Part shown: positions 18,460 through 64,000 of the stretch, piece by piece
Layout: each line of letters opens with the position of its first letter
How positions within the stretch are numbered: the stretch's first letter is position 1
Source of the DNA: Octopus vulgaris
Taxonomy: Eukaryota
Assembly: GCA_951406725.2 (NCBI GenBank)
Contig: OX597832.1
Coordinates: forward strand, 8,308,001-8,372,000
Length of the DNA stretch: 64,000 bases
Direction of reading: 5' to 3'
Notes under the pieces: generated by a model
Databases searched by the model: none
What the model saw: the letters and a program-made list of their open reading frames with translations, nothing else
What the model was told of the DNA's origin: nothing
Program-made: the position numbers and the translations under genes

Positions 18460-18960
18460 CGTTGTCTACTCCTTATGCAAAGTGTGACCACTTCTTGCAC
18501 TTACACCTAAGATCCCTCTTGGCAACTAATATAGCTTTTTGAATCAGACAATGTATTGAAAAGACACCCACATAGATTGCATATCTGTTCAGGAGCATCA
18601 AGAGCGGCAGTTAAGTTCTGATCTTTGTGGATCTTAAAATATCTTTTGAGCCCTGCGTTAGATTCGCAGACCTCATGGCATACTCAATATTGAAAGATGT
18701 GCACAGATATACGGGCGTAGTGCTTGGTTGAAGTTCATCTTTTCATAGGTCCGTAAATTTGTTTTGAGCACAGCAAAAGAAAGGCACAAAATGTGCACAA
18801 AAAAAGTTGCTGAGATCCAGTTTCTCGTTGATCGCAACATTCTTCGTTAAATCTCTCCTGTCTTGCATATATTATCCTGGCCTCCTCAGAAGCTTTCACT
18901 CCATTACACACTTTTGATCACCATCCATATCGATCAGGAGGAAGGGTTTCAATGGCTTTG
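18460..18960 (-). mobile_element. Decayed RTE-type LINE 3' region with C2H2 zinc-finger remnants
   Basis: Manual minus-strand translation gives [36 protein letters not shown] and GVKASEEARI, with multiple stops. Confidence 0.55.
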
Positions 18961-18987
18961 AGTTCATTCTACGTGACTGCATGGTAG

Positions 18988-20268
18988 TCAATACGCATAT
19001 GTGCTGCTGTGTCTTTGTTCACTTCTGGAGTACTTTTTGGAGTAACTGTTGGCCAGGAGTACCGGTTGGCCGGAATTGTGTGTTGGCGTGTTTTGAACTG
19101 TCTTCCTTCTTTCTTTTTCTATTCTTTGTCTTTCTGCTTTTCATTGTCTTTCTTTGAACTGCCATTTGACTTTGTTTAGACTTATGTTGTTTATTTCTGA
19201 ACTTTTCTTCAAAGCATGGCGAAGAAATTGAACCCTGCATTGGAGTGGAAAATCATCCTACCCAAGCAATGGTTGAAAAACTTGGAGGAAAGAACGGTGG
19301 TGTTGAGGACTTATTCTAAGTCACTCGACACCATCGCGGTCTTTACTAAGACAAAGATAGAAAAAGTGTTGGCAGAACATCTGCCAACGGTGTGGTTGCT
19401 GTTTGACACCCCTGAGGTGGCTCGCAAATTTGAGAGCCAGCCCTTAGATGGGCAAGAGATTCTGTTTCTTCTCACATATTGTGGGAAGAAATTAACAAGA
19501 GCTTGGGTCTGTGGGCTGCCACCGGGCATTGAACCGGAATGGTTTGGGGATACTATCCGCCGCTGTCTGGGTGGCAGCGGGCCCAAGGTTTTAAATGTGA
19601 TATTGTTGCCGGGGGCTGATTGGGTGGGGTCAAAAGCGGTTTTGACCCTATGGACACAATCAGCCGCTAAAGATCTGGAATTTCCAGATTTTTTTAAAAT
19701 AGACGGTTGCAGGTACCCAGTGATACTTGAGGGACGCATCCCTAAGTGTCACCTGCGCCTGGAATCGGGCCATATTAAGAAGAACTATCCTCAGGACCAA
19801 AGTAGGGTCCTGGAGCAGTTAATAAATGTAGCGACCCCCTCCTCGTTTGGAGGGAAAGAAGAAGGCAGTCGAGGAGGTGGAGACTTCCTCGAAAAAAGGG
19901 TAAAAAGAAGGTGGGCAGTAATGTTCAGGGTGAGGGACCCCTTTCCAAATGACCAATATAGGTTTAGTTTTAGGAGCCCCGGCTTGGGACTGCAGGATTG
20001 CCTGCGGGAGGGTAGGAAAGGTAACAGACTCAGTGCCTCAATTTCTAAGGACGATTGCGTTCATTCTTTGAATTGAGGTAAGAGGTTCAATACCACATTT
20101 TGTTTTGTTGGGCAAAAAGGGAACAATGTATTCGAAAAGCAACAATCGGCGGGTGTTGTCTGCTTCTCACACCAACCATTTTTTCCCATTCCATTATCAT
20201 TGTGTCTTTGTCCAACCCGCAGCTTCTTCATTTTTGTAAGGCTGCATAGTCAATTTTATGAAATAAAG
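18988..20268 (+). mobile_element. ORF1-only (HAL1-like) non-autonomous Tx1/L1-type element inserted in a SINE head
   Basis: About 1.3 kb with a single ORF1-like frame and no RT. It ends TTTGTAA-hairpin-AATTTTATGAAATAAAG like the LINE at 60607. Flanked by a SINE-head-like remnant (18971-18987) and the SINE remainder (20269 onward). Confidence 0.7.
19216..20076 (+). CDS. Retrotransposon ORF1-like protein with a degenerate CCHC zinc knuckle
   Basis: RRM-like segments (LTRAWVCGLPPGIEPEW; FPDFFKIDGCRYPVILEGRIPK) followed by CHLRLESGHIKKNYP, a decayed CxxCxxxGHxxxxC. Confidence 0.65.
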   Translation: MAKKLNPALEWKIILPKQWLKNLEERTVVLRTYSKSLDTIAVFTKTKIEKVLAEHLPTVWLLFDTPEVARKFESQPLDGQEILFLLTYCGKKLTRAWVCGLPPGIEPEWFGDTIRRCLGGSGPKVLNVILLPGADWVGSKAVLTLWTQSAAKDLEFPDFFKIDGCRYPVILEGRIPKCHLRLESGHIKKNYPQDQSRVLEQLINVATPSSFGGKEEGSRGGGDFLEKRVKRRWAVMFRVRDPFPNDQYRFSFRSPGLGLQDCLREGRKGNRLSASISKDDCVHSLN

Positions 20269-20406
20269 AAGCTTTCTTCCTAAACACATGGTTCCGGATT
20301 GAGTCCCATTGCGTGGCACCTTGGGCAAATGTCTTCTACTATATCGTCGGCCGACCAAAGCCTTGTGAATGCATTTAGTTGACGGAAAGTGAAAGAAGCA
20401 AGCCCG

Positions 20407-20408
<2 letters not shown>
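20269..20408 (+). mobile_element. OK-like tRNA-derived SINE lacking its first ~25 nt
   Basis: aagctttcttcc...catggttccggattgagtcccattgcgtggcaccttgggcaa matches the intact heads at 36253 and 60017. Confidence 0.8.
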
Positions 20409-20444
<36 letters not shown>

Positions 20445-23450: not shown

Positions 23451-23914
23451 ATATTCTAGGATTTTGCTGATAGTTACCATCACAGAGGAGTTGTAAAAAG
23501 GTACGCAACAGGCACAGACACAGCTGTTCAGTAAGAAGTTTGCTTTCCATAATATGGTTCGATTTTAATTCCACTGTCTTCTATCATAGCCACAGGTCGA
23601 TCGATGCCACATGAGTGGAATAGCAAACAAAAATTAAAGTAAATCGCTGTATATATATATATGTGTGTTTGTCCTTCCATACCACGTACGAGCAGCTGTT
23701 GGTTTGTTTATGTCCCCGTAGACAGGATTCCACACAGTTTCCATCTATAAAATTCATCAATGAATTACTCGACTCGGGCTATAATAGAACGCACTTGCCA
23801 AATATGCCGTGCAGTAGGATCAAACCACATAACAACTGGTTCCAAAGTAAGTATATATGTATGCATATACATAGTTAATTCCCCACCACCACCACCAAAA
23901 AAAAAACGAAGAGT

Positions 23915-26034: not shown

Positions 26035-26567
26035 AATATATATATATATGTATTGTATTAATGTACATCACGATGCCTATATATCTGTGCACACCTTTGA
26101 ATGCCATGTATGGCATAAGGTCTGCACATCTGACGGAGATCTCAAAATACCCTTTAAGAGTCAGAAAGATCAGAACTTAACTGCAGCTTTTGGTAGTTCA
26201 AATCAGATATAAAATCTATGTGGGTGTCTTTTCAATACTTTGGTTTAAAAAGCCACATCAGATGGCATGACGGGTCAAAGGTGTAGGTACAAGAGGTGGT
26301 CAGAAGTAGCATAAGGCGTAGACAACAACCATGTATATACGTATGTATGTATGTATGTATGTATGTATGTATGTATGTATGTATGTATGTATGTATGTAT
26401 GTATGTATGTATGTATGTATGAATGTATGTATGTATGTATGTTTATGTATATATATATATATACAAATACAGGTATGCGTAAATACATGAATGCAAATAA
26501 ACATATATATATATATACATATATATATACACAAATACAAGTATGCGTAAATACATGCATGCAAATA

Positions 26568-31972: not shown

Positions 31973-33190
31973 ATGTATGTAATATCTATATCTATATACC
32001 AACAGGTGTCCGGGGTCGCGATGGGAACTAGGATGGGCCCCAATTTCGCCAATCTCTTTCTTGGCTACATTGAGGCCCAAGTGTTCTCCCAGTTCTCTGG
32101 GCCGACCCCCGAACTATACGGTCGCTATATCGACGACTGCGTAGGTGCCACCTCCCTTTCCCGGGAACTTCTCGGCCAATTCATCTCTTTCCTTTCCAAC
32201 TTTCACCCCTCTCTTCAATTCACCTCCACCATCTCCAACACCTCTGTCAACTTCCTTGACATCTCTCTCCGCATCGATCACCCCTCCAGCTCTCTCACCA
32301 CCACCGCCTTCTTTAAACCTACGGATTCCCACCTCTATCTCAACTTCTCTTCCTCCCACCCCTTCCACACCAAACGAGCCATCCCCTACTCCCAGTTCCT
32401 CCGCCTCCGACGTTTGTGCAGCCGCGACCAGGATTTCGAGACCCAATCTCAATACCTGGCCCGCATGTTCAGACTCCGAGGTTACCCACCCACACTCCTC
32501 TCTGATGCCCTCACCCGCGCCCGTCGCATCGACCGCACTACCGCCTTGTCTCCTTCCTCCCGCCCACCCCCCAACCGCACCCCCTTCCCCCTCCTTTTCC
32601 ACCCCTCTACCCTACCCCTTCGTCGCAAGATACTACGTGCCTTCCGTCGCCTCCAGCTTGATCCCACCACCCGCCCCATTTTCCCTAACCCACCCCTGTC
32701 CTCTTTCAAACGAGCCCGCAATCTGCGTGACCTCCTGGTCCACAGCACCCTCTCTCCTTCCCCCTCAGCCCCACACGGATCATTCCCTTGCTCTAGATCC
32801 CGCTGCAACACTTGCCCCTTCATCACCAACACCACCGCTGTCACCGGCTCCAACCTGCATACTGTACGCATTAGGCACTCTTTTACGTGCACCTCGTCTG
32901 GCCTTATTTACTGCATTAAATGCAACCTATGCGGGATGCTGTATGTAGGTCAGACGGGACGCCGGTTGTCCGACCGTTTCACTGAACACTTGAGGGACGT
33001 TCGCCTACACTCTTTTTCTCCCGTCGCACGCCACTTCCGCTCGGCCGGCCATTCCCGAGATGACATCTCAGTGTTTGGTCTCGCCCCCCACAATGGTCGC
33101 CCACTTTCCAGGCTCCACTTGGAGCAACGCTACATCTTCACCCTACAAACTACCACCCCACACGGACTTAACACAGCCCCCTCCTCTTGA
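31973..33190 (+). CDS. PLE reverse transcriptase (C-terminal part) + Zn finger + GIY-YIG endonuclease
   Basis: GVAMGTRMGPNFANLF, RYIDD, VNFLDI, KPTDSH, AIPYSQFLRLRRLCS, PCSRSRCNTC, LIYCIKC...YVGQTGRRL..RFTEH, TTPHGLN. Homology starts about 31996; the Met comes from flanking sequence. Confidence 0.92.
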   Translation: MYVISISIYQQVSGVAMGTRMGPNFANLFLGYIEAQVFSQFSGPTPELYGRYIDDCVGATSLSRELLGQFISFLSNFHPSLQFTSTISNTSVNFLDISLRIDHPSSSLTTTAFFKPTDSHLYLNFSSSHPFHTKRAIPYSQFLRLRRLCSRDQDFETQSQYLARMFRLRGYPPTLLSDALTRARRIDRTTALSPSSRPPPNRTPFPLLFHPSTLPLRRKILRAFRRLQLDPTTRPIFPNPPLSSFKRARNLRDLLVHSTLSPSPSAPHGSFPCSRSRCNTCPFITNTTAVTGSNLHTVRIRHSFTCTSSGLIYCIKCNLCGMLYVGQTGRRLSDRFTEHLRDVRLHSFSPVARHFRSAGHSRDDISVFGLAPHNGRPLSRLHLEQRYIFTLQTTTPHGLNTAPSS

Positions 33191-36180
33191 GACCGTTTTT
33201 TTTTTTTTTTTTTCGGACACACCACCCACACACACCCACCCACCTACCTCCCACCCACCTACCTCCCACACGCCTGTTCACACACACATACGTAGACCCA
33301 TCTACGTACATACATTCACACATTTAATCACACACACTTACAGACACACATGCACATACACACACACATACATACATACACACACGCATACATACTTACA
33401 CACACACACACACACACAGACATACATACACACATACACACACACATACATACGCACATACATACACACACACACACACACACCGCACGTACATACTTCA
33501 CACACACACACATGCACACATACATGTAGGCACATACATACATACATACCCACACATGCACACCCGTACACTGAATGCACACACACATACACCTTTTTGC
33601 ATCCAGGCAGCCCCCCTCTTTTCTGCTTTCCGGTTTTGGCTGATGGATCCTCGGTTCCCGCGTAGCGGGGCGTTCGAGGGCCTTTGCGCTCGCGCGCCTT
33701 GGCGCGCGCTGGGGCTCGGTCGGCCCCTTTGGGCTTGCGTTGCACTGCTTGTGCGCTGTGTGCGTGAGCGCGCTTCGTGTGTGTGGCTTGCTTCGGATGT
33801 GCGCTTGCGTATGTTTGCATACATACCCACACACTCGCATGCATCCCTACCCACATACATACACGCACACCTACTCACACACACACATACACACACACAC
33901 ATACCCGCACACACACACACATACATACATACACACACATACCCACTTCAGACATACACACACACAGACATACACCCATACACCCACACTCACACGCATA
34001 CACACACACATACACACGCACACGTACACATACACACACACACACACCTACATACATACATTACACTTGTATACACACACACTTACATTCATACACACAC
34101 ACACCTACACAGCCATACCCTCACTCAGACACACACATCTACCTACACACACACAAACACACACTGACACACACCCATACATACATACATCTACACACTC
34201 ACGCCTACACACATACATACACACATACATAAACACACACACATACACATACACACACATACGCACACACGCATATACTTATACACATGCACACACACAC
34301 ATACATACATACACCCATATACATACACACACACATACCTACATACTCCTATACGCACATACATACACACAGACATACACACATACACACTCACACAAAC
34401 ATACACACACACATACTTACACACACACTCACCTGCACGCGCACACACATGCATGACAAACACTCATACACTCACACTCACATACGCACACACCAACATA
34501 AACACGCACACGCACACACACACCTACACTCCCACACACATACACACGCACCTACATACACACACGCACGCATACACACGCATACACACATACATTACAC
34601 ACGTACACACACACCTACATACACATGCATACACACACACACACAAACATGCACGGACACACCCAGACATACATACATACACCTATATACACACGCCCAC
34701 ACACCTACATACACACACATATACACACGCCCACACAGCTACATACACACACATACATACACACATACACGGACACACCCATACATACTTACATACATAC
34801 ACCTATACACACACGCCTACACACCTACACACACATGCACACACACACACATGTACGCACATACACACACATATACGCACACACATATATACCCACACAC
34901 ATGCACACACACACACATACGCACATACATGCACGCATGCACACGCGCACACCTACACGCATACACACACACACACGCACGTACACATACATACATACAC
35001 ACACGCATACATACACCCATACACATACATGCATCCTACACACACATACATACACACTCACACATACATACACACACACGCACTCACTCACACACCTGTA
35101 TGTTCGCGCACACACATGCACATACACACACTTCCCCACACCCACACGTACATACATACACACTCATACACATACACACACACACACACACGGACATACA
35201 TCTATGCACACACATATATACACACATACTCACATACATTCATCGGACACACTGCCACCCAGACATACACACAGACACACTCACACATCCACACGCACAC
35301 ATACGTACGCGCACACTCGCAGGCGCGCGCACACACGCGCTTGCGCCGGTGGGCGCACGCATGCGCGCCGCATGCACCTCGCCCTTGGACCCGACGAGAC
35401 CTCCCGCCCGTTCCTGGGATGTCGCTTGTCGTTGGGTTTTCCCACGCCCGTCTCCGCGGTACCACTCTTCCATCTTCCCATCCGCTGGAGTCTTTTTCCT
35501 AAACCCCCCTTTTTTTTCGTTACACACACGCGCACACATATACACACATTGCTTAAACATATACATTACTCTTACACACATTCAATCTACTCGCCACTAA
35601 TACTACCACGACACTGGACACACACACACACTACTACTCAACACACGCTGGCACGCTACATACGCCCCCACCCCTTCCCCTCCCTCCCTTCCTCCTTCCT
35701 CCCTTTTCTTACTACTGACCTTTGTCTGCTATGCTGCTGCTATGCTGACCACCGTCTCGCCCTACCTCACACGCCTACACACAGACGCACACACTAACAC
35801 ATACATATATTTTTTGTTTTTTTACCTCGCCTCACACACACACATACACACACGCACACGCACACACTCACACATACACACACATCTGTTGCGTTACCAA
35901 CCTTGTCTCCACTCTTTTGCCTTTAAAAACCCACTTTGCTCTTGTTATCGTAAACATCCGCCTTTCACCATGTGCTATTCCTAACACCAGTCGTTTTTTT
36001 CTCTATCTCCGTTGCCCGCTCCGGGATCTTTCTTTCCTCTCTCTTCCTTCTTTATGTTTCCGACGAAGAGCTCCGCTCGAAACGTCATACCTCCCTGCTT
36101 CCATTTCCTGAGCGCCTATTAATAATAATACTGTAATTGTTCCATTGTTGTTGTTCTTTTGTTTCCCGTTTGGATTAAAA

Positions 36181-36252: not shown

Positions 36253-36255
<3 letters not shown>

Positions 36256-36429
36256 CGCAGGAGTGGCTGTGTGGTAAGTGGCTTGCTTACCAAACATATG
36301 GTTCCGGGTTCAGTCACTTGGGCAAGTGTCTTCTGATATAGCCTTGGGCCGACAAAAGCCTTGTGAGTGGATTTGGTAGACGGAAACATCATCATCACCA
36401 TGATCATCATCTTCTTCTTCTCCTTCTTC

Positions 36430-41273: not shown

Positions 41274-41320
<47 letters not shown>

Positions 41321-41364
41321 AAACAAGTAAAAAATAGAAAATGCTAAAATAATTTTATAGTGAA

Positions 41365-41412
41365 CATTTCAGTACCGGTTTCGGTCATTTTGAGACCTTT
41401 TCAACTGTAACG
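41365..41412 (-). ncRNA. Minimal hammerhead ribozyme, U3-A8 variant
   Basis: Reverse complement of 49294-49341. Confidence 0.75.
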
Positions 41413-42147
41413 ATTAAATAATTAAATTTAGAAAAATTAGAAGAAAAGTTTTTTTAAAAGAATATTTCTATAGTAGTGTTCAGATTTAAGTGGCATTCTG
41501 CCTTTCTCTGACTCCCTTGTTTGCACTTGTGTGTTCGAGGTAGTTGTGAGTTCTTGGTAGGGTAGTAGAGGGAAGGCTGGTGAGGAAAGGGGGTGGGAGA
41601 ATCTGGGAGTGCCCTGATGGTCGTATTTTGAATGGTCAGTGGCGGCTGGCAGTCTCAGTTCAATTCAGGATTGTTTATAGAATTAGCGTAGGTGTTATAC
41701 TAAAAAACATTAGTGACAAACTTAAGGGGTAGGGGGTGGAGAAGAAGAAGAAGAAGAAGAAGAAGAAGAAGAAGAAGGAGAAGGAGAAGATGATGGTGAT
41801 GGTGGTGATGATTATGACGACGATGATGATGATAACGATGATGATGAAGAAGAAGAAGAAGAAGAAGAAGAAGAAGAAGAAGAAGAAGAAGAAGAAGAAG
41901 AAGAAGAAGAAGAAGAAGAAGAAGAAGAAGGAGAAGGAGAAGATGGTGGTGATGATGGTGGTGATGATGATGACGCCGATGATGATGATAACGATGATGA
42001 TGAAGAAGAAGAAGAAGAAAAAAACAGAGAAGGGAGAATATGAATGGGTGTAAATATAGCTATGAAGGGGCTGATTAGTAATGGATTCTATGGAGTGTAG
42101 TATTTGTGTGTGTATATATATTTTTTTCTTTTATTCTAAAGTTGAGG

Positions 42148-44500
42148 TATATTAATTGTTTGTCGTAGACCCGTTAAGAAGTGGCTTGTATTTTGTAATA
42201 AAGAGATTTTCTTTACTTATTCTTTGTCTCGAGGTTGTATCGTCCCTAAATTGGTAGAGGGGAAAATTCTGAAGTTTGGTGTTTTTTTGTTGGCGCAAGT
42301 ATCTATGTGTTGGCTAAAAGCTATTTTTCTGTTTTGGGGAATTTTTATCTGGGATCTGTGCAGGGCCATTCGTTTACGCAAACCATTTTTTGTTTGGCCT
42401 ATGTACTGCTCTTGACACCCGGAGCAGGTTAGTGAGTATATTAGGTTCTCCGAAGCACATGTGAAGTTGCTTTTCACTGTAAACCGTTGTCCCTGTTTGA
42501 AGGAGAACTCCGAACCCTCGATTAGATAGTCGCATATCCCGCAATTGGGTCTTCCACATTTTTTTACTGTCGGCTTCTGTGTTGAAGAGTGAATTCGGGC
42601 TTGTGTAAGGAGACTTTTCATGGATCTAGGCTGTCTTTTGCTTTTTATGATCGTGTGTGTTTTTGGAGGATTGTGTTCATTCTGTGGTCTTTTTTTAGGA
42701 GGGGTATGTTGTGGAGGATGGTGTCGAAGGCTTCGTTATTGAGAGGGTTGTGTGTGGAGATGTATGGTAAGGCTTTTGGTTGTAAGTTTTTCTTTGATTT
42801 GGGATGTCTCAGTTCCTTGATGTTAAGTTGAAGGGCACGTTGAATGCACTTGTCAATAAGTGAAGGTGGATAGTTCCTGGTGATTAGGGTATCTTTTAGT
42901 TCTTGTAGTCGTGTGTCTCTGGTGTTTGCGTTAGAGACTATAGTGCATATCCTTTTTGCTAGATTGAAGGGGATATTCATCCTGGTGTGTCTGGGGTGGC
43001 ATGAATTGAATGGAAGATATTGCTTAGAGTCTGTAGGCTTATAGTATATGTCTGTTTCTATTATATCATTAGCTTTCTTAATGAGGATATCGAGGAAGGG
43101 GAGTTGTTGTTGGCTATATTCCATCGTGAATTGGATGTTTACGTCCAGTCCGTTTAAAATTTTCTGGAATTCTATGAGTTTTTCTATATTTTTATGCCAA
43201 AGGATGAAACAGTCATCTAGATATCTCTTCCAGTTGTTTTCTATGTAGATGGAGAAAGGGCTGCCATATCTTTCTAGAACCTTACGATACAGACTGATCT
43301 CTAGGTATCCTATGACTAGGTTGGCAAAGGAGGGGGCCATTCGTGTACCCATCGCAGTCCCCGATTTTTGTCGGTAGAAGTTGTCATTGAAGGCGAAGAA
43401 GTTATTTTCCAGGATGAATTTAACCCCTTCTATCACAAATTCTTTTTTGATGCGGTGTGGTAGTTCGTTGGCGTGATTCTCTAGCCAGAATTGGATTGCC
43501 TCTAGTCCTAGGTTGTGGGGGATATTGGAGTAGAGGTTGACTACATCGAAGGATACCAGTATGGTGTTTTTGTTTATAGTATTCGGTAGGTGATTGAGCA
43601 TATCTAAGTCGTCCCTTATATAGCTTTTGACATGTTTGAGGAGTGGTTTTAACAGGGTGTCTAAAAAGTTACTGAGGCGGTGGGTTTCGCATGCGGGACC
43701 TGCTATTATGGGTCTCAATTTGAGGTCATTAGGATTAGGGACTTTAATTATTTTGTCTGTAGCTATCTTGCATGCTTTGCTTATTTTTTCACTTTTGTGG
43801 ATCTTAGGTATACCGTAGAATTGGCTAGTTTTACTTGTGAAATTGGTCATATAATCATATTCTTTGTCGGTGAGCCCTGCTTTGTATGGGTTTAATATGG
43901 ATTTTAGTTCCCTCATTATTTTTTGTTGACTGTAGTTTTGTGCCTTTTCATAGTATGTTGTGTCTTCCAGCATAGAAAGTACCAAAGTTATGTAAAATGT
44001 CGTATCCATTAAGACAACAGCACTCCCTTTATCGGCCTCTTTGATTGTTATTGTTTTATCTAGTTTTAATTTGTTCAACTCAGCCCATTCTTTTTTTGCT
44101 GAAGTTTGGTTTGTGTTTTTGTTTGTGCATATGTTGATATGGGTAATTTGATATGTGGTCACAGAAATCATCAAGTGTTTTATTCTTACCTTTCGAGGGG
44201 GTGTAGTTACTCCTATTTCTGGCTAACGATTCGTCCTCGTTGTATTTATCGTATAGCTCCTCAGTAAGTCTTAATTTTCTGCAGAATTCTGCGATGTCTT
44301 CTTTCATTTCATTGTAGTTGGGGTGTTGTGGGGTGGGTGTAAACTTGAGTCCTTTGGAAAGTATGTTTATTTGGTTTGCTGTTAGTTCCTTGTGAGTTAG
44401 ATTAATAATTTTTATTACTTTTGGTTCCTCCTGCTTGTTTGGTGCTATCTTGTGTCTCTGTGTTTGCGTATTGGGTCTAAAAAATGAATGCGGTGGTTGG
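42148..44500 (-). CDS. PLE RT + Zn finger + GIY-YIG (split by 1-bp homopolymer indels)
   Basis: KEADKGSAVV, FYGIPKIHK, LRPIIAG, SFDVVNLYSNIPH, GTAMGTRMAPSFANL, RYLDD, LPFLDI, CGRPNCGIC, NLIYSLTC...YIGQT. Confidence 0.9.
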
Positions 44501-45360
44501 GACGGTAGCTAGTATATAGTTGTTCTTTGTTGATTAGGGGTCTCCTGTTGTGATTTGTGGTGTGTGTTCTTGGAGCAGTATTGAGGAGAGCATCCCGATA
44601 TCCCATATTCGGGTGTGGTGTTCTAGGAGGCCTTCGTAGGTAATCATTGCAAGTGGTGTGGGTTTGTTGTGCATGGTTGTTTAACCGGTTAATGGGACGA
44701 AGATTTCGTTGGTAACTCCTTTGGGTGGGGATGAGGTTGCAGTGTCTATGCTGTGGGTGTTGATTTATCCTTTCTCTGCTTGAAGTGGGGTATTCCTGAT
44801 ATTGTATCGCTGGCTGCTTACAGAGTTGGGGTTAGGTCCTGTATTCTTTTTTGATAGTAGTGAAGGTTCCGATTTTTAGACGGGTGTGTATCGGTGTTTG
44901 GGTGTTGTTTTGGTTTTCTTATTTTCTGGAAAGGGTTGTTGGAGGCGTGCTCTGTTTGAAAGACGGCTTCATAGTCTGAGAACCAAGTGGCGCTTTTCTC
45001 CCAGCGTTGGAGAGATTTTAGTTCTTCTTTTTCACAGTCCTCTTTCCATAGTTTGGAGAACTTCTCTTGATCTGGGCCTTGGGTCATTTTGCGAATTTCT
45101 TCGTTGATATCTTCATCGGTGGATTTTATTTTATCCTCATTCGTTTGGGCCCTCAATTTCAGAAGTTCTATTTCCATTTTCATTTTTCCAGTGCCATTCT
45201 CTCCCTGAGGTGTCTTTGTGTTTCAGGTTCTTCTGTAATAGCTTTGAACTGGAATTTACGTGGGAGGATTAACGGGGTCCGGTTGAGCCATTTTTCGTAT
45301 ATATCCGCTTTGTTGTTGTTTTGGATCATCTTCCAAAAGGCGAACTTTCTATCTCTGAGT

Positions 45361-46270
45361 GATAGAAAGTTCGCCTTTTGGAAGATGATCCAAAACAACA
45401 ACAAAGCGGATATATACGAAAAATGGCTCAACCGGACCCCGTTAATCCTCCCACGTAAATTCCAGTTCAAAGCTATTACAGAAGAACCTGAAACACAAAG
45501 ACACCTCAGGGAGAGAATGGCACTGGAAAAAATGAAAATGGAAATAGAACTTCTGAAATTGAGGGCCCAAACGAATGAGGATAAAATAAAATCCACCGAT
45601 GAAGATATCAACGAAGAAATTCGCAAAATGACCCAAGGCCCAGATCAAGAGAAGTTCTCCAAACTATGGAAAGAGGACTGTGAAAAAGAAGAACTAAAAT
45701 CTCTCCAACGCTGGGAGAAAAGCGCCACTTGGTTCTCAGACTATGAAGCCGTCTTTCAAACAGAGCACGCCTCCAACAACCCTTTCCAGAAAATAAGAAA
45801 ACCAAAACAACACCCAAACACCGATACACACCCGTCTAAAAATCGGAACCTTCACTACTATCAAAAAGAATACAGGACCTAACCCCAACTCTGTAAGCAG
45901 CCAGCGATACAATATCAGGAATACCCCCACTTCAAGCAGAGAAAGGATAAATCAACACCCACAGCATAGACACTGCAACCTCATCCCCACCCAAAGGAGT
46001 TACCAACGAAATCTTCGTCCCATTAACCGGTTAAACAACCATGCACAACAAACCCACACCACTTGCAATGATTACCTACGAAGGCCTCCTAGAACACCAC
46101 ACCCGAATATGGGATATCGGGATGCTCTCCTCAATACTGCTCCAAGAACACACACCACAAATCACAACAGGAGACCCCTAATCAACAAAGAACAACTATA
46201 TACTAGCTACCGTCCCAACCACCGCATTCATTTTTTAGACCCAATACGCAAACACAGAGACACAAGATAG
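45361..46270 (+). CDS. 5'-truncated PLE ORF1 (charged, coiled-coil-like, then low-complexity basic)
   Basis: DRKFAFWKMIQNNNKADIYEKWL...LRERMALEKMKMEIELLKLRAQ... With one A-run indel near 45865 it continues to ...GYRDALL...RIHFLDPIRKHRDTR*. Confidence 0.65.
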
Positions 46271-48558
46271 CACCAAACAAGCAGGAGGAACCAAAAGTAA
46301 TAAAAATTATTAATCTAACTCACAAGGAACTAACAGCAAACCAAATAAACATACTTTCCAAAGGACTCAAGTTTACACCCACCCCACAACACCCCAACTA
46401 CAATGAAATGAAAGAAGACATCGCAGAATTCTGCAGAAAATTAAGACTTACTGAGGAGCTATACGATAAATACAACGAGGACGAATCGTTAGCCAGAAAT
46501 AGGAGTAACTACACCCCCTCGAAAGGTAAGAATAAAACACTTGATGATTTCTGTGACCACATATCAAATTACCCATATCAACATATGCACAAACAAAAAC
46601 ACAAACCAAACTTCAGCAAAAAAGAATGGGCTGAGTTGAACAAATTAAAACTAGATAAAACAATAACAATCAAAGAGGCCGATAAAGGGAGTGCTGTTGT
46701 CTTAATGGATACGACATTTTACATAACTTTGGTACTTTCTATGCTGGAAGACACAACATACTATGAAAAGGCACAAAACTACAGTCAACAAAAAATAATG
46801 AGGGAACTAAAATCCATATTAAACCCATACAAAGCAGGGCTCACCGACAAAGAATATGATTATATGACCAATTTCACAAGTAAAACTAGCCAATTCTACG
46901 GTATACCTAAGATCCACAAAAGTGAAAAAATAAGCAAAGCATGCAAGATAGCTACAGACAAAATAATTAAAGTCCCTAATCCTAATGACCTCAAATTGAG
47001 ACCCATAATAGCAGGTCCCGCATGCGAAACCCACCGCCTCAGTAACTTTTTAGACACCCTGTTAAAACCACTCCTCAAACATGTCAAAAGCTATATAAGG
47101 GACGACTTAGATATGCTCAATCACCTACCGAATACTATAAACAAAAACACCATACTGGTATCCTTCGATGTAGTCAACCTCTACTCCAATATCCCCCACA
47201 ACCTAGGACTAGAGGCAATCCAATTCTGGCTAGAGAATCACGCCAACGAACTACCACACCGCATCAAAAAAGAATTTGTGATAGAAGGGGTTAAATTCAT
47301 CCTGGAAAATAACTTCTTCGCCTTCAATGACAACTTCTACCGACAAAAATCGGGGACTGCGATGGGTACACGAATGGCCCCTCCTTTGCCAACCTAGTCA
47401 TAGGATACCTAGAGATCAGTCTGTATCGTAAGGTTCTAGAAAGATATGGCAGCCCTTTCTCCATCTACATAGAAAACAACTGGAAGAGATATCTAGATGA
47501 CTGTTTCATCCTTTGGCATAAAAATATAGAAAAACTCATAGAATTCCAGAAAATTTTAAACGGACTGGACGTAAACATCCAATTCACGATGGAATATAGC
47601 CAACAACAACTCCCCTTCCTCGATATCCTCATTAAGAAAGCTAATGATATAATAGAAACAGACATATACTATAAGCCTACAGACTCTAAGCAATATCTTC
47701 CATTCAATTCATGCCACCCCAGACACACCAGGATGAATATCCCCTTCAATCTAGCAAAAAGGATATGCACTATAGTCTCTAACGCAAACACCAGAGACAC
47801 ACGACTACAAGAACTAAAAGATACCCTAATCACCAGGAACTATCCACCTTCACTTATTGACAAGTGCATTCAACGTGCCCTTCAACTTAACATCAAGGAA
47901 CTGAGACATCCCAAATCAAAGAAAAACTTACAACCAAAAGCCTTACCATACATCTCCACACACAACCCTCTCAATAACGAAGCCTTCGACACCATCCTCC
48001 ACAACATACCCCTCCTAAAAAAAGACCACAGAATGAACACAATCCTCCAAACACACACGATCATAAAAAGCAAAAGACAGCCTAGATCCATGAAAAGTCT
48101 CCTTACACAAGCCCGAATTCACTCTTCAACACAGAAGCCGACAGTAAAAAAATGTGGAAGACCCAATTGCGGGATATGCGACTATCTAATCGAGGGTTCG
48201 GAGTTCTCCTTCAAACAGGGACAACGGTTTACAGTGAAAAGCAACTTCACATGTGCTTCGGAGAACCTAATATACTCACTAACCTGCTCCGGGTGTCAAG
48301 AGCAGTACATAGGCCAAACAAAAATGGTTTGCGTAAACGAATGGCCCTGCACAGATCCCAGATAAAAATTCCCCAAAACAGAAAAATAGCTTTTAGCCAA
48401 CACATAGATACTTGCGCCAACAAAAAAACACCAAACTTCAGAATTTTCCCCTCTACCAATTTAGGGACGATACAACCTCGAGACAAAGAATAAGTAAAGA
48501 AAATCTCTTTATTACAAAATACAAGCCACTTCTTAACGGGTCTACGACAAACAATTAA
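46207..48558 (+). CDS. PLE RT + Zn finger + GIY-YIG (split by 1-bp homopolymer indels)
   Basis: KIINLTHKEL...LSKGLKFTPTP N-terminus, RT motifs as in the left arm, and a C-terminus restorable to ...KENLFITKYKPLLN, matching the 4998-5477 homologue. Confidence 0.9.
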
Positions 48559-49293
48559 TATACCTCAACTTTAGAATAAAAGAAAAAAATATATATACAC
48601 ACACAAATACTACACTCCATAGAATCCATTACTAATCAGCCCCTTCATAGCTATATTTACACCCATTCATATTCTCCCTTCTCTGTTTTTTCTTCTTCTT
48701 CTTCTTCATCATCATCGTTATCATCATCATCGGCGTCATCATCATCACCACCATCATCACCACCATCTTCTCCTTCTCCTTCTTCTTCTTCTTCTTCTTC
48801 TTCTTCTTCTTCTTCTTCTTCTTCTTCTTCTTCTTCTTCTTCTTCTTCTTCTTCTTCTTCATCATCATCGTTATCATCATCATCGTCGTCATAATCATCA
48901 CCACCATCACCATCATCTTCTCCTTCTCCTTCTTCTTCTTCTTCTTCTTCTTCTTCTTCTTCTTCTCCACCCCCTACCCCTTAAGTTTGTCACTAATGTT
49001 TTTTAGTATAACACCTACGCTAATTCTATAAACAATCCTGAATTGAACTGAGACTGCCAGCCGCCACTGACCATTCAAAATACGACCATCAGGGCACTCC
49101 CAGATTCTCCCACCCCCTTTCCTCACCAGCCTTCCCTCTACTACCCTACCAAGAACTCACAACTACCTCGAACACACAAGTGCAAACAAGGGAGTCAGAG
49201 AAAGGCAGAATGCCACTTAAATCTGAACACTACTATAGAAATATTCTTTTAAAAAAACTTTTCTTCTAATTTTTCTAAATTTAATTATTTAAT

Positions 49294-49341
49294 CGTTACA
49301 GTTGAAAAGGTCTCAAAATGACCGAAACCGGTACTGAAATG
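49294..49341 (+). ncRNA. Minimal type I hammerhead ribozyme, U3-A8 variant
   Basis: cgttacag TTGAAAA ggtc tcaaaat gacc GAAA ccg GTA ctgaaatg, with palindromic stem III ACCGGT. Confidence 0.78.
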
Positions 49342-49423
49342 TTCACTATAAAATTATTTTAGCATTTTCTATTTTTTACTTGTTTTTTCATATATATCAA
49401 CTCGTGTGTTCCTTTTCACCCTT

Positions 49424-49789: not shown

Positions 49790-50110
49790 TCTTTTATTCT
49801 TGTAATTGTGTCAGTCATTGATTGCGGCTATGCTGGAACACCGCCTTTAGTCGAAAAAAATTATTGTATGTACTAGTACTTATACCGAACCACTAAGCTA
49901 CGGTAAGTAAGCACACCAACATCGGTTGTCAATCAATGGTGGAGGGCAAACAGACACACAAATACATATAGATATATAGATATACAATGACCTTCTTTCG
50001 ATTTCCGTCTACCAAATCTACTCACAAGGCTTCGGTCAGCCTGAAGACAGCTGTGCAAGGTGCTACAGACGTGGTTGGGAAGCAAGCTTCTTAGCACACA
50101 GCTTCTCCAC
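49790..50110 (-). mobile_element. Degenerate OK-like SINE
   Basis: Colinear with 60187-60606. Confidence 0.7.
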
Positions 50111-50399
50111 ACTCACACATATAAATATGCAAATTATGCATACACATATATGTATATATGTGTGTGTGTGTGTCCAAAAACAAAGAATAAAAGGTAAATA
50201 TGTACATGTGGTTGCGTATGAACATACATATATATATATCACTTTTACATACACATACATACACGATAAACCACACACACGCGCGTATGTAGGTGTTAGT
50301 GTCTGTGTAGGTATTCAGCTTTTTATGTACTATGATAAGCACGAAGATATATGTGTGGGATTTTGTATGTGAGTGAGTGTGTGTGTGTGTGAGAGAGAA

Positions 50400-59968: not shown

Positions 59969-60016
<48 letters not shown>

Positions 60017-60021
<5 letters not shown>

Positions 60022-60183
60022 AGTCGTGGATGTGTGGTAAGAAGCTTGCTTTCCAGTCAAGTGTCTCCTGGCTCAGTCCCATTGCGTGGCACCTTGGGCG
60101 ACTGACTCTTACTATAGCTTCTGGGCAACCAAATCCTCGTGAGTGGACTTAGTGGGCGTAAACTGAAAGAAGCCAGTCGCGTA
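60017..60183 (+). mobile_element. OK-like SINE head
   Basis: gcgcagtcgtggatgtgtggtaagaagcttgct...gcgtggcaccttggg; an uninterrupted target site. Confidence 0.8.
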
Positions 60184-60186
60184 TAT

Positions 60187-60386
60187 ACTCTTTACTCTTT
60201 TACCTGTTTCAGTCATTTGACTGCGGCCATGCTGGAGCACCGCCTTTAGTCGAGCAAATCGACCCCGGGACTTATTCTTTGTAAGCTCAGTACTTATTCT
60301 ATCGGTCTCTTTTGCCGAACCGCTAAGTGACGGGGACGTAAACACACCAGCATCGGTTGTCAAGCAATGCTAGGGGGACAAACACA

Positions 60387-60466
<80 letters not shown>

Positions 60467-60606
60467 TACGACAGGCTTCTTTCAATTTCCGTCTACCAAA
60501 TCCACTCACAAGGCATTGGTCGGCCCGGGGCTATAGCAGAAGACACTTGCCCACGATGCCACGCAGTGGGACTGAACCCGGAACCATGTGGTTGGCTAGC
60601 AAGCTA
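60187..60606 (-). mobile_element. OK-like SINE, complete except for the first ~25 nt displaced by the Tx1-like LINE
   Basis: Minus strand starts tagcttgctagccaaccacatggttccgggttcagtccc and runs through the internal microsatellite to the gtaaaagagtaaaagag tail. Confidence 0.88.
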
Positions 60607-63600
60607 CTTTATTTCATATAATTTGCCATTTAGGCATTTACAAAGAGGGGACAAACAAGGACAGACAAATATAAAGGGTGAAGTAGCTTAACACAGTTAC
60701 AATTTTCGAATGAAATTATGGATAAGATTATAAACAATGAATTTTACGAAGGCAATGTTTAAAAATATTAATGATCATGTCGAAGGACGGACACCCAGCC
60801 ATCCGGGTAGAACCTTTACTTTCTGATCCGATCACACTTACCTGGTGCCAAACATACCCATCTTGTATGCCACAGGCTTCCATCTTTTCACAAACATATC
60901 TCGTGACAGACACCTCTTCTCCAGCCTGATTTTGCTACTGAGGTGGTAACTAAAAAAGTTAATCAACCCCTGGCCGGAGACAAAGGTGCCTGTCACTATA
61001 CCTTTCGTACGCGTCTTCCATACTGTTTCTTTCAGTATGGCTACTACACAGAAAAAACAAGCCTTTCTTTCCCTGTTAAGGAAAGGGGCGGCACAATCTC
61101 GATGATAGACTCAGCTGATAGCTGTACTCTTCCCATCACTGACAACAGTTGTTCAACAAAAGCTATCAGTCCCGATAACTCCGGACACTCCACGAATGCG
61201 TGCAAGACGGTCTCCCTATCCTGCTCACATCGCGGGCATGTCGGCGAGACGGCACTACCGTGCCTTGACAGCTTGTCGCGAACAGGTAAAGCCGCACGGA
61301 AACACTGCCAGGCTAGGGATTTCTGGTAATTATCCAGATACCCCGGCCCGAACGTCCTCCGGAACAGGTTGACCAACTGATTTTCATCGTAGCCCAGGGT
61401 CTCCCCCAAGGCGTCTTCGGACTTAATCTCCACTAACCTGCTATAGAAATCCGTGGTGGAACTCCTGTTGCCGGCGTTGCCCACCCGAGATAGTAGCTGG
61501 AGTGCCTGACGGCAGTCCAAATAACATTCACTCAGTTTAGGTCTCCGCTTGATCCATGCACCGATGTCCGTTAGGGATGTTAACTGGGGAAGGTAGAACC
61601 GGACGTGCGGCGACCACACCTGCTCTCCATCCAGGTAAAGCCAGAGGTGCCTCAACCTTAACGCGAATTTTCGCATCCTCAGCCAAGGCATCCCTAGCCT
61701 ACCCTTTAGCGGTTTCTGGCAGCAGACAGAGCGCTTTACAAGTGGCTTTCCTCCTTTCCACAAAAATCGGAAAAGGATTCTCTCCAACTTGTTCAGCCAC
61801 AAATCGGGGCAAGGCACCACGGTCAGACGGTAGGTGATTACTGATGCTATAAACATCTGCACCACCTCCGCCTTCCCTAGCAGGGATAACGCCCGCCCAG
61901 ACCAGGTCTGGGTTAGAGCGGTCACCTTGTTGGCCACCTCACTCCAATTTTTCTCAATCTGGAGGTCTGGCCCGAACCAGACTCCGAGCAGCTTAACAGG
62001 ACCTTCCATCCAACGCCCTACGACGTTATTGGACGGCTTCGGCTTGCCCCTCCAGGTGCCGAGTTGCAAACCGACCGACTTGTCCTTGTTAACCTTTGCT
62101 CCTGCCACCGCCTCGTAACTTTTGATGGCCTCTTCCACCACTGGAAGCTGGCCTTCGTCTGCCACGATGATGGAGGTGTCATCCGCATACGCCGTAGCTC
62201 CTCTTCCACACCATAGATCATGCGGCGCGCCCCCTAGTACCTCCAACTTCCGCAGCAAAGGCTCAAGAGCCAATACGTATAGGAGCGAGGACAGGGGACA
62301 CCCTTGACGAACTGAACGCTCGATCCTGAACGGCTTCGAAAAGGAACCGTTCACCTTGACTACAGACTCGATGTCGCTATACAAAGCAGCGATCCAACCT
62401 CGAAAGGTCGGGCCTAGGCCAGCCTCTCCGAGGACCGCCGCCAGGTACCGATGGTCGACCCTATCAAATGCTTTGGACTGGTCTAAATGTACCAGTGCTC
62501 CCCCTGCGCCAGAAAGCTTCCCCACCCTCTCTAAGGAGTAGCGTATAAGGTGGAGATTGTCGTGGATCGTTCTGCCGGGGATAGCGCACATTTGCGCTTC
62601 CCCGACAAGTTTGTCCACGACCCGCGCCAACCTTTTTGCTAGCACCTTGGCCAGAATCTTTAACTCTGTGTTTAACAGAGTTATGGGCCTGAAGTTCCCT
62701 ATCTCGTCCCCCTTGTTCGGGTCCTTCCTGATCAACGTCACCGCCCCCCGGCTCGCAGACTTGGGAATTCTCCCATTCTGCTGCCAGTTGGCGTAGACGC
62801 TAGCCAGCAGGTGCCCGAACAAGTCTGGCATACTTCTATAAAATTCATAGGGCAGACCATCGAGACCCGGCGACTTCTCCCCGGGGCACTTGCCCAACAC
62901 CTCGATTACTTCCTCGGCTGTGAATGGCCCTTCACAGCACTCAGCCTCTCGTGTCGAGAGGCGCGGGCCACCAGACAGGAAGTCCCTAAGGGCCTCACCA
63001 TGATCCAGCGTCCCGCACCCCCGAACAACTCGGCGAAGTGCTTGTGAAGTGCCTCACACATCTCGTCCCGCTTCTTGATCGTGCATCCGTTTTCATCAAC
63101 AAGAGACCCAATTGTGGCATCGTTTCCACGCTGTGTTTCTATCGTACGGGCCCATCCGGCAACATTAATCCCCTCACGGCCCAATGCTCGTACTTTAGCC
63201 CGGACTCTACATCCCTCATGTTTGGTTTTGAGGTGACGGTCTAATGCCGTTCTCGCCGCTAAAATGTGAGATGCAGAGCCCAACCTCAACGCCTCCTCTA
63301 AGTTCTTAACTTGTTGCCCTTCTATTCTAGCCCTATCTAGTCTTAGTTGTTTACTAAATCTAATGGACTCGAATCGAATGGCTCTTTTGAGGGTGAACCA
63401 CCACCGGTTATTAACCACGGCTCCGGTTAACGCCCTCTGCACTAACACCTTAATCCGGCTACGGTATGCCTCGCGTGTCAAAATAGACTTGTTCAGCTTC
63501 CAGTAGCCGGTTTCTATCTTAAGTGTGCTATCTATGTCCAGTCTACACGTGACCATTCTATGGTCAGTATAGGGCACCTGGACGAGCTGTGGACAACTAA

Positions 63601-64000
63601 AACTAGACTTATCTCTAGTTCTTATCACTATCCTGTCTAGATAAGACTTGAACCTTCCGTCGCCACTCATCCAGGTCCACTCTGGGACGTTCGGATGGTC
63701 AAGTCTGTAACGATCTGCTAGCTGAAACCGCTTAAGCAGATCTACGAGACGTGAGTTCACTTTCCTATAGATCGAGCCAACGCTATCGATGTGTACGTCA
63801 ACGATAGCATTAAAGTCCCCTAATATCACTAAAGTCTTCGACGTCACGAGAAAGCCCTCTAGGCGCCGATAAAAATCAGTTTGGAAACCTCTAGCACAAG
63901 GTGCATAGAGTCCGATCAACCTGAAGGCCTTACTGCTGTATGTCACATCAAGGACGACCAGCCCACCTTCTGGGTCTACATAGACTGTACTTGTCTGTAG
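60607..64000 (-). mobile_element. Tx1/L1-clade non-LTR retrotransposon (continues beyond the window)
   Basis: APE + RT + C-terminal zinc finger. The 3' UTR ends with ATGAAATAAAG at 60607. Confidence 0.93.
60838..64000 (-). CDS. Tx1-like ORF2: apurinic endonuclease, reverse transcriptase, zf-RVT (two 1-bp frameshifts near 63020 and 61060)
   Basis: GDFN, SYLDRI, TDH, GYWKLN, KSPGLDGLP, FRPITLLN, DQSKAFDRV, RQGCPLS, YADD, CPRCEQDRETVLHAFVEC. Confidence 0.92.

Follow-up and report, generated by a model that had tools for sequence, protein, structure and literature searches.

LINEs of the Tx1 clade are known to insert into other mobile elements, and the accessible part of PMC4494074 describes Tx1 within Tx1D of Xenopus as well as Tx1-Mar, together with SINEU, within Mariner-N4_AMi of crocodilians. 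The same text regards a family as target-specific when >20% of its flanks carry one target, and it attributes target choice mainly to the endonuclease. Non-autonomous LINEs that possess an ORF1 have been described in three other clades, namely HAL1 (L1), HeT-A (Jockey) and Ag-Sponge (CR1), in a list that names no Tx1-derived case in the available section of PMC5786205; HAL1 is also covered in the accessible portion of PMC5753468. In the R2 SIDEs of Drosophila, internally deleted partners retain both the 3′ end of a target-specific LINE and its insertion site, and these multi-copy elements of the 28S rDNA have UTR-derived ends, a ribozyme and a conserved 3′ fold (PMC3414825, available part). 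As for the ORF1 proteins, variants of type I ORF1p (RRM + CCHC) are linked to the Tx1 clade in animals other than mammals, according to the accessible part of PMC5203782. In Octopus vulgaris, 421 recent L1-Tx1 insertions covering 2.29 Mb are reported in the available text of PMC13282606. The supplement of the O. vulgaris repeat paper gives 80 L1-Tx1 families with no detail, and in its main text the words target, nested, ORF1 and non-autonomous have 0 occurrences. Titles and abstract openings in the literature likewise contained no SINE-targeting or ORF1-only Tx1 in octopus, although Repbase, Dfam, the repeat library of the O. vulgaris paper and subscription journals may already include such elements.

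The window analysed here, a stretch of 64,000 nucleotides of O. vulgaris DNA, carries a 1.3-kb unit on the forward strand, made of a decayed ORF1 with no remnant of ORF2, and a LINE located about 40 kb away. Each joins a separate copy of a SINE-like repeat, in both cases at one and the same base (GTGTGGT/AAG), which likely reflects the site-targeting habit of the Tx1 group; a preliminary description of the unit had left this target unnamed. The structure is real, and what it probably adds is a new target to a habit already known; the claim that the unit marks a family is unproven. The preliminary description had given the unit as 18971..20408, whereas the element proper is now placed at about 18988-20265, with 18972-18986 and 20266-20412 assigned to the target repeat. 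The features discussed below are these:

18972..18986, + strand: probable remnant of the SINE-like repeat head, left half of the target site (motif match)
18988..19215, + strand: putative 5′ UTR, exact 5′ end not fixed (multi-copy from about 19005)
19216..19922, + strand: decayed ORF1 with two predicted RRM-like domains and a CCHC knuckle (P0003 homology, model and fold search)
19747..19788, + strand: zinc-knuckle position, with Arg and Tyr replacing two cysteines (translation)
19917..19950, + strand: junction zone, where the ORF1 homology ends and the 3′ segment starts (contigs, P0003 alignment)
19923..20232, + strand: multi-copy 3′ segment, putative 3′ UTR, with no detectable coding remnant (contigs, protein-end tests)
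20233..20265, + strand: 3′ terminus common to unit and LINE, consisting of TTTGTAA, a 4-bp hairpin whose sequences differ, and AATT.TATGAAATA (alignment)
20266..20412, + strand: SINE-like repeat body from AAG, right half of the target site (aligned copies)
36254..36388, + strand: empty (uninterrupted) SINE-like copy that defines the target (alignment)
60016-60190 (+), 49985-50112 (-) and 23515-23640 (+): further empty SINE-like copies (alignment)
60462..60609, - strand: SINE body behind the LINE, with its junction at the same base as in the unit (alignment)
60610..64000, - strand: L1/Tx1-type LINE with endonuclease, RT, zf-RVT and a 231-nt 3′ UTR, frameshifted (Pfam, PDB match)

The SINE-like repeat is short, dispersed and very abundant, and the six copies aligned have a common 5′ start. 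The four uninterrupted copies of the window run head-AAG-body, the two best kept of them with GTGTGGT-AAG, and the body next to the unit (20266-20412) aligns with all four as well as with the copy behind the LINE. The pattern that combines terminus and body matches twice in the window against 0 expected, and both LINE-type termini of the window stand at the SINE site (2/2). For the SINE body behind the LINE, identity is 80.3% with the body next to the unit and 88.6% with the empty copy located at 36254, values that fit independent insertions; moreover, the two filled bodies differ at the first base after AAG, as the empty copies do. On the 5′ side of the unit, the head motif at 18972-18986 has 3 mismatches in 15 positions, with 1.04 such matches expected per window and, scaled from the whole window, about 0.001 per 120-nt zone. 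A looser local-alignment test of the head, in which diverged copies were used one at a time, gave no significance (151, 365 and 187 of 1,056 zones as good). Concerning the origin of the repeat, ARAGORN gave 0 tRNAs, Rfam no tRNA match and the exact A/B box pattern 0 matches; words at 36265-36275 and 36308-36316 look box-like by eye when set against the A/B-box consensus. The copies at 60016-60190 (+) and 60190-60609 (-) lie tail to tail, and the minus-strand copy behind the LINE is longer, with a second half beyond a (TA)n(TG)n tract.

Copies elsewhere were followed in public contigs from 4 of 24 runs (three organism labels, four studies), aligned to 18740-20315 at 80% likeness, with 1,665-2,501 contigs per run. 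Results are given for 32 listed of 8,585 pieces, 15 of 82 joints and 24 of 1,505 rows of loose ends; relative depth is the summed depth divided by the single-copy depth (60, 20, 8 and an estimated 52), for 16 of 30 bins. In these data an empty head ending at 20266 occurs in 77-153 contigs per run in the four runs, and the depth at 20277-20315 is several thousand times that of single-copy DNA. Ten contigs of run X1 carry a LINE-type hairpin end at 20258, in an alignment where ends in other DNA are mostly undetectable. At the left side of the unit (18987) the window reads GGTAG and runs X2 and X4 read GGTAA, and the right side begins with AAG, which would fit a 2-3 nt overlap at this one locus. 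The junction pattern had no match in the viral, metagenome and genome contigs scanned, nor had the empty-head pattern in the viral contigs scanned, and protein scans for genomic context found no matches in viral, metagenome and genome contigs.

A close-up view of the 3′ ends shows that both were present as first described, at 20233-20268 (+) for the unit and 60644-60607 (-) for the LINE, and that the unit indeed has a LINE-type 3′ end, with terminus and insertion base common to both elements. Over the last ~35 nt the two reach a local alignment score of 32, which 0 of 10,000 shuffles attained and which, among 2,976 tiles of the window, was reached by the unit's own tile alone. Upstream of these ~35 nt, a blastn comparison of the entire unit with the LINE gave only matches of up to 18 nt with E > 1. 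The flanks and a hairpin had been described as kept while the loop differs; the flanks are common, but the stem sequence differs too and the hairpin is weak. Folding gave a z of 0.13 for the unit (107 of 200 shuffles as good) and -2.19 for the LINE (7 of 200), and a 4-bp stem arose by chance in 2,491 (unit core) and 860 (LINE core) of 20,000 shuffles. Because of these weak results, the terminal hairpin is plausible rather than established. Such 3′ ends can be written as TTTGTAA-N(10-16)-AATTNTATGAAATA, and the conserved terminus is likely to serve as the recognition signal of ORF2.

The LINE contains the Pfam domains RVT_1, zf-RVT and Exo_endo_phos, and its best PDB match is L1 ORF2p (E 1e-46, versus R2 at 4e-21), so that it displays the features of the L1/Tx1 group, that is, an APE endonuclease, an RT and a C-terminal zinc motif. 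It is interrupted inside the endonuclease by the window end at 64000, and its ORF1 lies beyond the window. We infer that it is Tx1 rather than L1 from the type of ORF1 that the unit has, from the preference for one site and from sequence motifs. A query with the endonuclease found 1 match among 8,000 scored, an ORF2 piece without ORF1. The unit does not derive by deletion from the family to which this LINE belongs, because the two have nothing in common upstream of the last ~35 nt.

The unit had been said to encode only an ORF1-like protein, and this is borne out: the ORF is real and of the RRM + CCHC type, and an ORF2 remnant is absent from 19923-20268. The frame is open from 19201 to 20076, and homology extends only from the ATG at 19216 to 19922, spanning a frameshift near 19833. 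The translated unit ORF is 69% identical to P0003 (LOC115225585; a 281-aa Octopus sinensis model), the 1 match among 662 candidates, and the homology reaches 19922 across the frameshift (0 of 502 shuffles as good). A profile search of 1.84 billion representatives returned 49 matches at E <= 0.001, 27 of which were aligned with the window ORF (alignment A2); P0008 and P0042 were excluded as spurious or knuckle-only matches, and P0011 as a chimeric model. In A2 no stretch was conserved enough for scanning contigs. A zf-CCHC match was found in 14 of the 28 aligned members at E <= 0.5 and no Pfam match in the window's own ORF. P0003 lies near CCHC and ZCCHC3-RBD clusters in the ESM Atlas (0.90-0.92), which is a lead only. 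Its AlphaFold model (pLDDT 79.6, pTM 0.59) retrieved tandem-RRM proteins such as SFPQ and hnRNP A1 in a fold search, with a best E of 4e-5 and a TM by query of ~0.25. The unit ORF is thus predicted to be an ORF1 of the RRM + CCHC type, with two RRM-like domains followed by one CCHC knuckle, as in type I ORF1p. P0003 differs from it in being compact, beginning at the first strand and ending in a 79-aa tail, whereas the tails of the long relatives measure 380-400 aa.

Of 21 ORF relatives looked up, 13 are recorded with an organism, in every case an octopod. The C-terminal domain of the 800-860-aa forms is missing from the octopod-named relatives, whose tails measure 22-293 aa; these short octopod ORF1 models may be truncated models or pseudogenes. 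Five long relatives of the unit's ORF1 (P0046, P0047 and P0055-P0057; 799-861 aa) have in common a C-terminal domain of ~150 aa that is conserved and matches nothing in Pfam. Longer or fused forms of P0003 were not found among 1,831 candidates. P0011, an O. sinensis gene model, has the first ~46 residues of the unit's ORF1 fused to an integrase-like piece and attests a further copy of the start of this ORF1 family in the O. sinensis genome. Three proposals for coding traces beyond the break were rejected: remnants of ORF2 or of the long-ORF1 C-terminus in 19923-20268 (0 of 7 tests, the best at 40 of 467), a further, degenerate knuckle within the 3′ segment (weak tblastn matches, E 0.02-0.4; 157 of 806 shuffles as good) and homology of the last 35 residues of P0003 to the 3′ segment (253 of 649 shuffles as good).

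The putative 5′ UTR, the ORF1 and the 3′ segment are each multi-copy in all four runs. Relative depth, which is not a copy number, is about 24-109 at 19058-19163 and 50-410 for four ORF-core bins, then 3-11 at 19906-19958 and 8-41 at 19959-20223; it is near single-copy over 18952-19004 and rises from 19005. The paralogous contigs X2 r10, X4 r26 and X20 r17 bridge the 5′ UTR into the ORF, and they do so across a dip at 19164-19216 (0.2-6) that is deeper than the one near the junction, so a dip alone is weak proof of a break. At 19376-19428 the summed depth has a spike far above the rest of the ORF (109,027 in X1, less in the other runs), possibly caused by a single short repeat or contig of very high abundance.

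The junction near 19920 is spanned by X1 r8, X2 r16 and X4 r32, with 1, 3 and 6 other letters, and the depth of these contigs (58.7, 21.4 and 9.09, versus 62.7, 19.1 and 6.59 in the flank) is that of single-copy DNA at the unit locus. An assembly artefact at the junction was rejected, since contigs of three runs span it, of which X1 may be the source of the window. No paralogous piece spanning 19917-19950 is present among the 32 listed of 8,585, and of the excess depth in the bin around 19917, pieces stopping at that position would explain 188 of 204, 100 of 114, 28 of 18 and 393 of 575. X20 r22 departs from the unit at 19917 and continues for 1,004 letters, where the unit has ~350 left; X20 r24 covers 20020-20249 and is preceded by 131 unmatched letters; and majority differences in 19967-20186 are common to 4-29 contigs per run. 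The preliminary description had proposed an ORF1-only family: that each segment is multi-copy agrees with it, but among the listed pieces the 1.3-kb form occurs at one locus. It had also pointed out that a junction unique to this locus would indicate a one-off deletion, and this check leans against the family (3 of the 32 listed pieces span, all from the unit locus), at a low power given that 8,553 pieces are unlisted.

The copy in the window is heavily decayed. A 36-bp in-frame deletion is found at 19385/19386, and the missing stretch is present in 24-40 contigs per run (loose ends at 19385). Of 17 listed private (majority) differences in the ORF, 15 change the residue. The unit is an old, dead copy, which lacks these 36 bp, has the frameshift near 19833 and differs mostly by residue-changing substitutions. 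The knuckle had been called decayed, and two cysteines are indeed lost (to Arg and Tyr); the decay is nonetheless largely private to this copy, as 43-54 contigs per run have a Cys codon at 19756. P0003 keeps Cys at both of the positions decayed in the unit and has lost a different cysteine.

Several readings of the unit can be confronted with these data. The one that we prefer, which we regard as about evenly poised between right and wrong, is that the unit descends from a SINE-targeting lineage of Tx1 type and is a dead copy that lost its middle once; such a one-off loss is slightly more likely than the mark of an ORF1-only family. Targeting itself is favoured by the use of the same base in two SINE copies only 80.3% alike that differ right after AAG, by the terminus-body pattern (2 versus 0 expected) and by the ten X1 contigs with a LINE-type end. 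A reading without targeting, by which an ancestral LINE hit a SINE once and its later copies carried the SINE body as their 3′ end, could appeal to the fact that there are two filled sites only, with the 5′ flank of the LINE beyond the window, and to the failure of the head remnant in the looser test (151 of 1,056 zones); it is nevertheless very improbable in view of the head motif on the 5′ side of the unit, of the closer likeness of the LINE's body to an empty copy (88.6%) than of the two filled bodies to each other, and of a first base after AAG that varies as among empty copies. For the loss of the middle, the homology to P0003 ends at 19922 practically where X20 r22 leaves (19917), the junction is spanned solely by single-copy contigs of the unit locus (3 of the 32 listed of 8,585), and this decayed copy already has another private deletion. 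The break near 19920 and the unequal depth on either side of it would also suit a one-off chimera, in which the 5′ part of an ORF1 family was joined to the 3′ end of another SINE-targeting family by a template switch at insertion, but nothing assigns the two parts to different families and a deletion explains the data with one parent, which makes the chimera highly unlikely.

In an alternative that we hold somewhat less likely than the one-off loss, and that loosens the proposal of the preliminary description, there is a true ORF1-only (HAL1-like) family, ~1.3-2 kb long, which the ORF2 of a SINE-targeting Tx1 element mobilises in trans via the common terminus; the unit would then be one of its decayed members, possibly with additional loss in the variable tail of ORF1. 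With it would come a three-tier octopus system formed by a SINE landing pad, a LINE engine and a Tx1-derived one-gene parasite that rides on the 35-nt terminus, a picture whose chances we place somewhat below even. In its favour, all three segments are multi-copy in the four runs with the 5′ depth at least that of the 3′ segment, there is no ORF2 remnant, and only the last ~35 nt are common with the LINE, as expected of a partner. Moreover, P0003 ends 35 codons past the break, the tails of the octopod-named relatives (22-293 aa) go without the C-terminal domain of the long forms, and ORF1-bearing non-autonomous LINEs are known in three other clades (PMC5786205, available section). On the other hand, no paralogue spans 19917-19950 among the 32 listed of 8,585 pieces, X20 r22 has its 1,004 further letters and X20 r24 its 131 unmatched ones before 20020, and the single-copy depth of the spanning contigs speaks against near-identical young copies with this junction; truncated pseudogenes may underlie the short ORF1 models, and an ORF2 can also follow a short ORF1. 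The one-off loss has difficulties of its own, in that no relative is seen to continue into ORF2 among the listed pieces and no ORF2 remnant is left in 19923-20268, so that the deletion must end near or inside the UTR. In addition, a 5′ UTR depth at least equal to that of the 3′ segment (24-109 versus 8-41) is the opposite of what 5′ truncation of long LINEs gives, an argument weakened by the fact that long copies are not rare in octopus, as the 421 L1-Tx1 insertions in the available text of PMC13282606 indicate.

Under the preferred one-off loss, the parent of the unit would be an autonomous family related to, and distinct from, that of the 60.6-kb LINE. Following the general course of target-primed reverse transcription, the APE endonuclease would nick the bottom strand at GTGTGGT/AAG, and the A-rich end of the RNA, whose conserved terminus would be recognised by ORF2, would anneal to the freed T's and prime reverse transcription, leaving the 2-3 nt overlap. 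A single deletion near 19920, either during or after insertion, would have removed ORF2 entirely, together with the end of ORF1. The common terminus and target would then come from the descent of two LINE families and not from parasitism.

Compared with the known systems, the octopus locus resembles Tx1/Tx1D and Tx1-Mar/SINEU, as far as these are described in the accessible part of PMC4494074, in having an APE-type LINE inside another transposon and a shorter element with the same target. It differs in that the target is one base in a SINE-like head, that the shorter element has an ORF1 instead of an snRNA head and that the specificity is seen at the scale of a window. As in HAL1, HeT-A and Ag-Sponge, the unit consists of a 5′ UTR, an ORF1 and a LINE-type 3′ end with no ORF2; those, in the available section of PMC5786205, are amplified ORF1-only families, whereas the form of the unit is seen at one locus and its ORF1 is shortened. 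We therefore do not grant the unit membership in a HAL1-like class, for which the evidence leans negative because the test for a repeated junction does so (0 paralogues among the 32 listed of 8,585 pieces). The unit also resembles the R2 SIDEs in having the 3′ end and the insertion site in common with a LINE, but it has a weak 3′ fold and is only a candidate for family status.

The firmer result is a likely new target of Tx1-type LINEs, one base in an abundant octopus SINE-like head, which is used by two element types with only ~35 terminal bases in common. The two offer a natural minimal pair for what ORF2 needs at the 3′ end of its RNA, and the site is an APE endonuclease target that is both short and defined. 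An insertion into a SINE head would do the host no harm and would probably disrupt the promoter of the SINE. An ORF1-only family, if true, would provide a Tx1-derived, target-specific case, a fourth origin of such elements beside HAL1, HeT-A and Ag-Sponge, and it would become possible to ask why partners keep ORF1; if the deletion was a one-off, the unit is an ordinary ruin and the targeting alone is noteworthy.

Other observations concern the surroundings. Upstream of the unit, an older repeat at 18440-18722 matches 26069-26347 at 76%, its part at 18846-18951 is multi-copy in the four runs, and a convincing Pfam match was absent from three minus-strand frames of 18460-18975. The window contains many microsatellites, and its 4 kb at 32000-36000 are GC-rich, with a very strong skew of C over G and short-period repeats. 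A near-perfect palindrome extends from 41309 to 49397 (centre near 45357, arms of ~4 kb), which could stem from a fold-back artefact of the assembly or from an inverted duplication of very recent date; most of its segments are 100% complementary, and its arms look LINE-like by eye.
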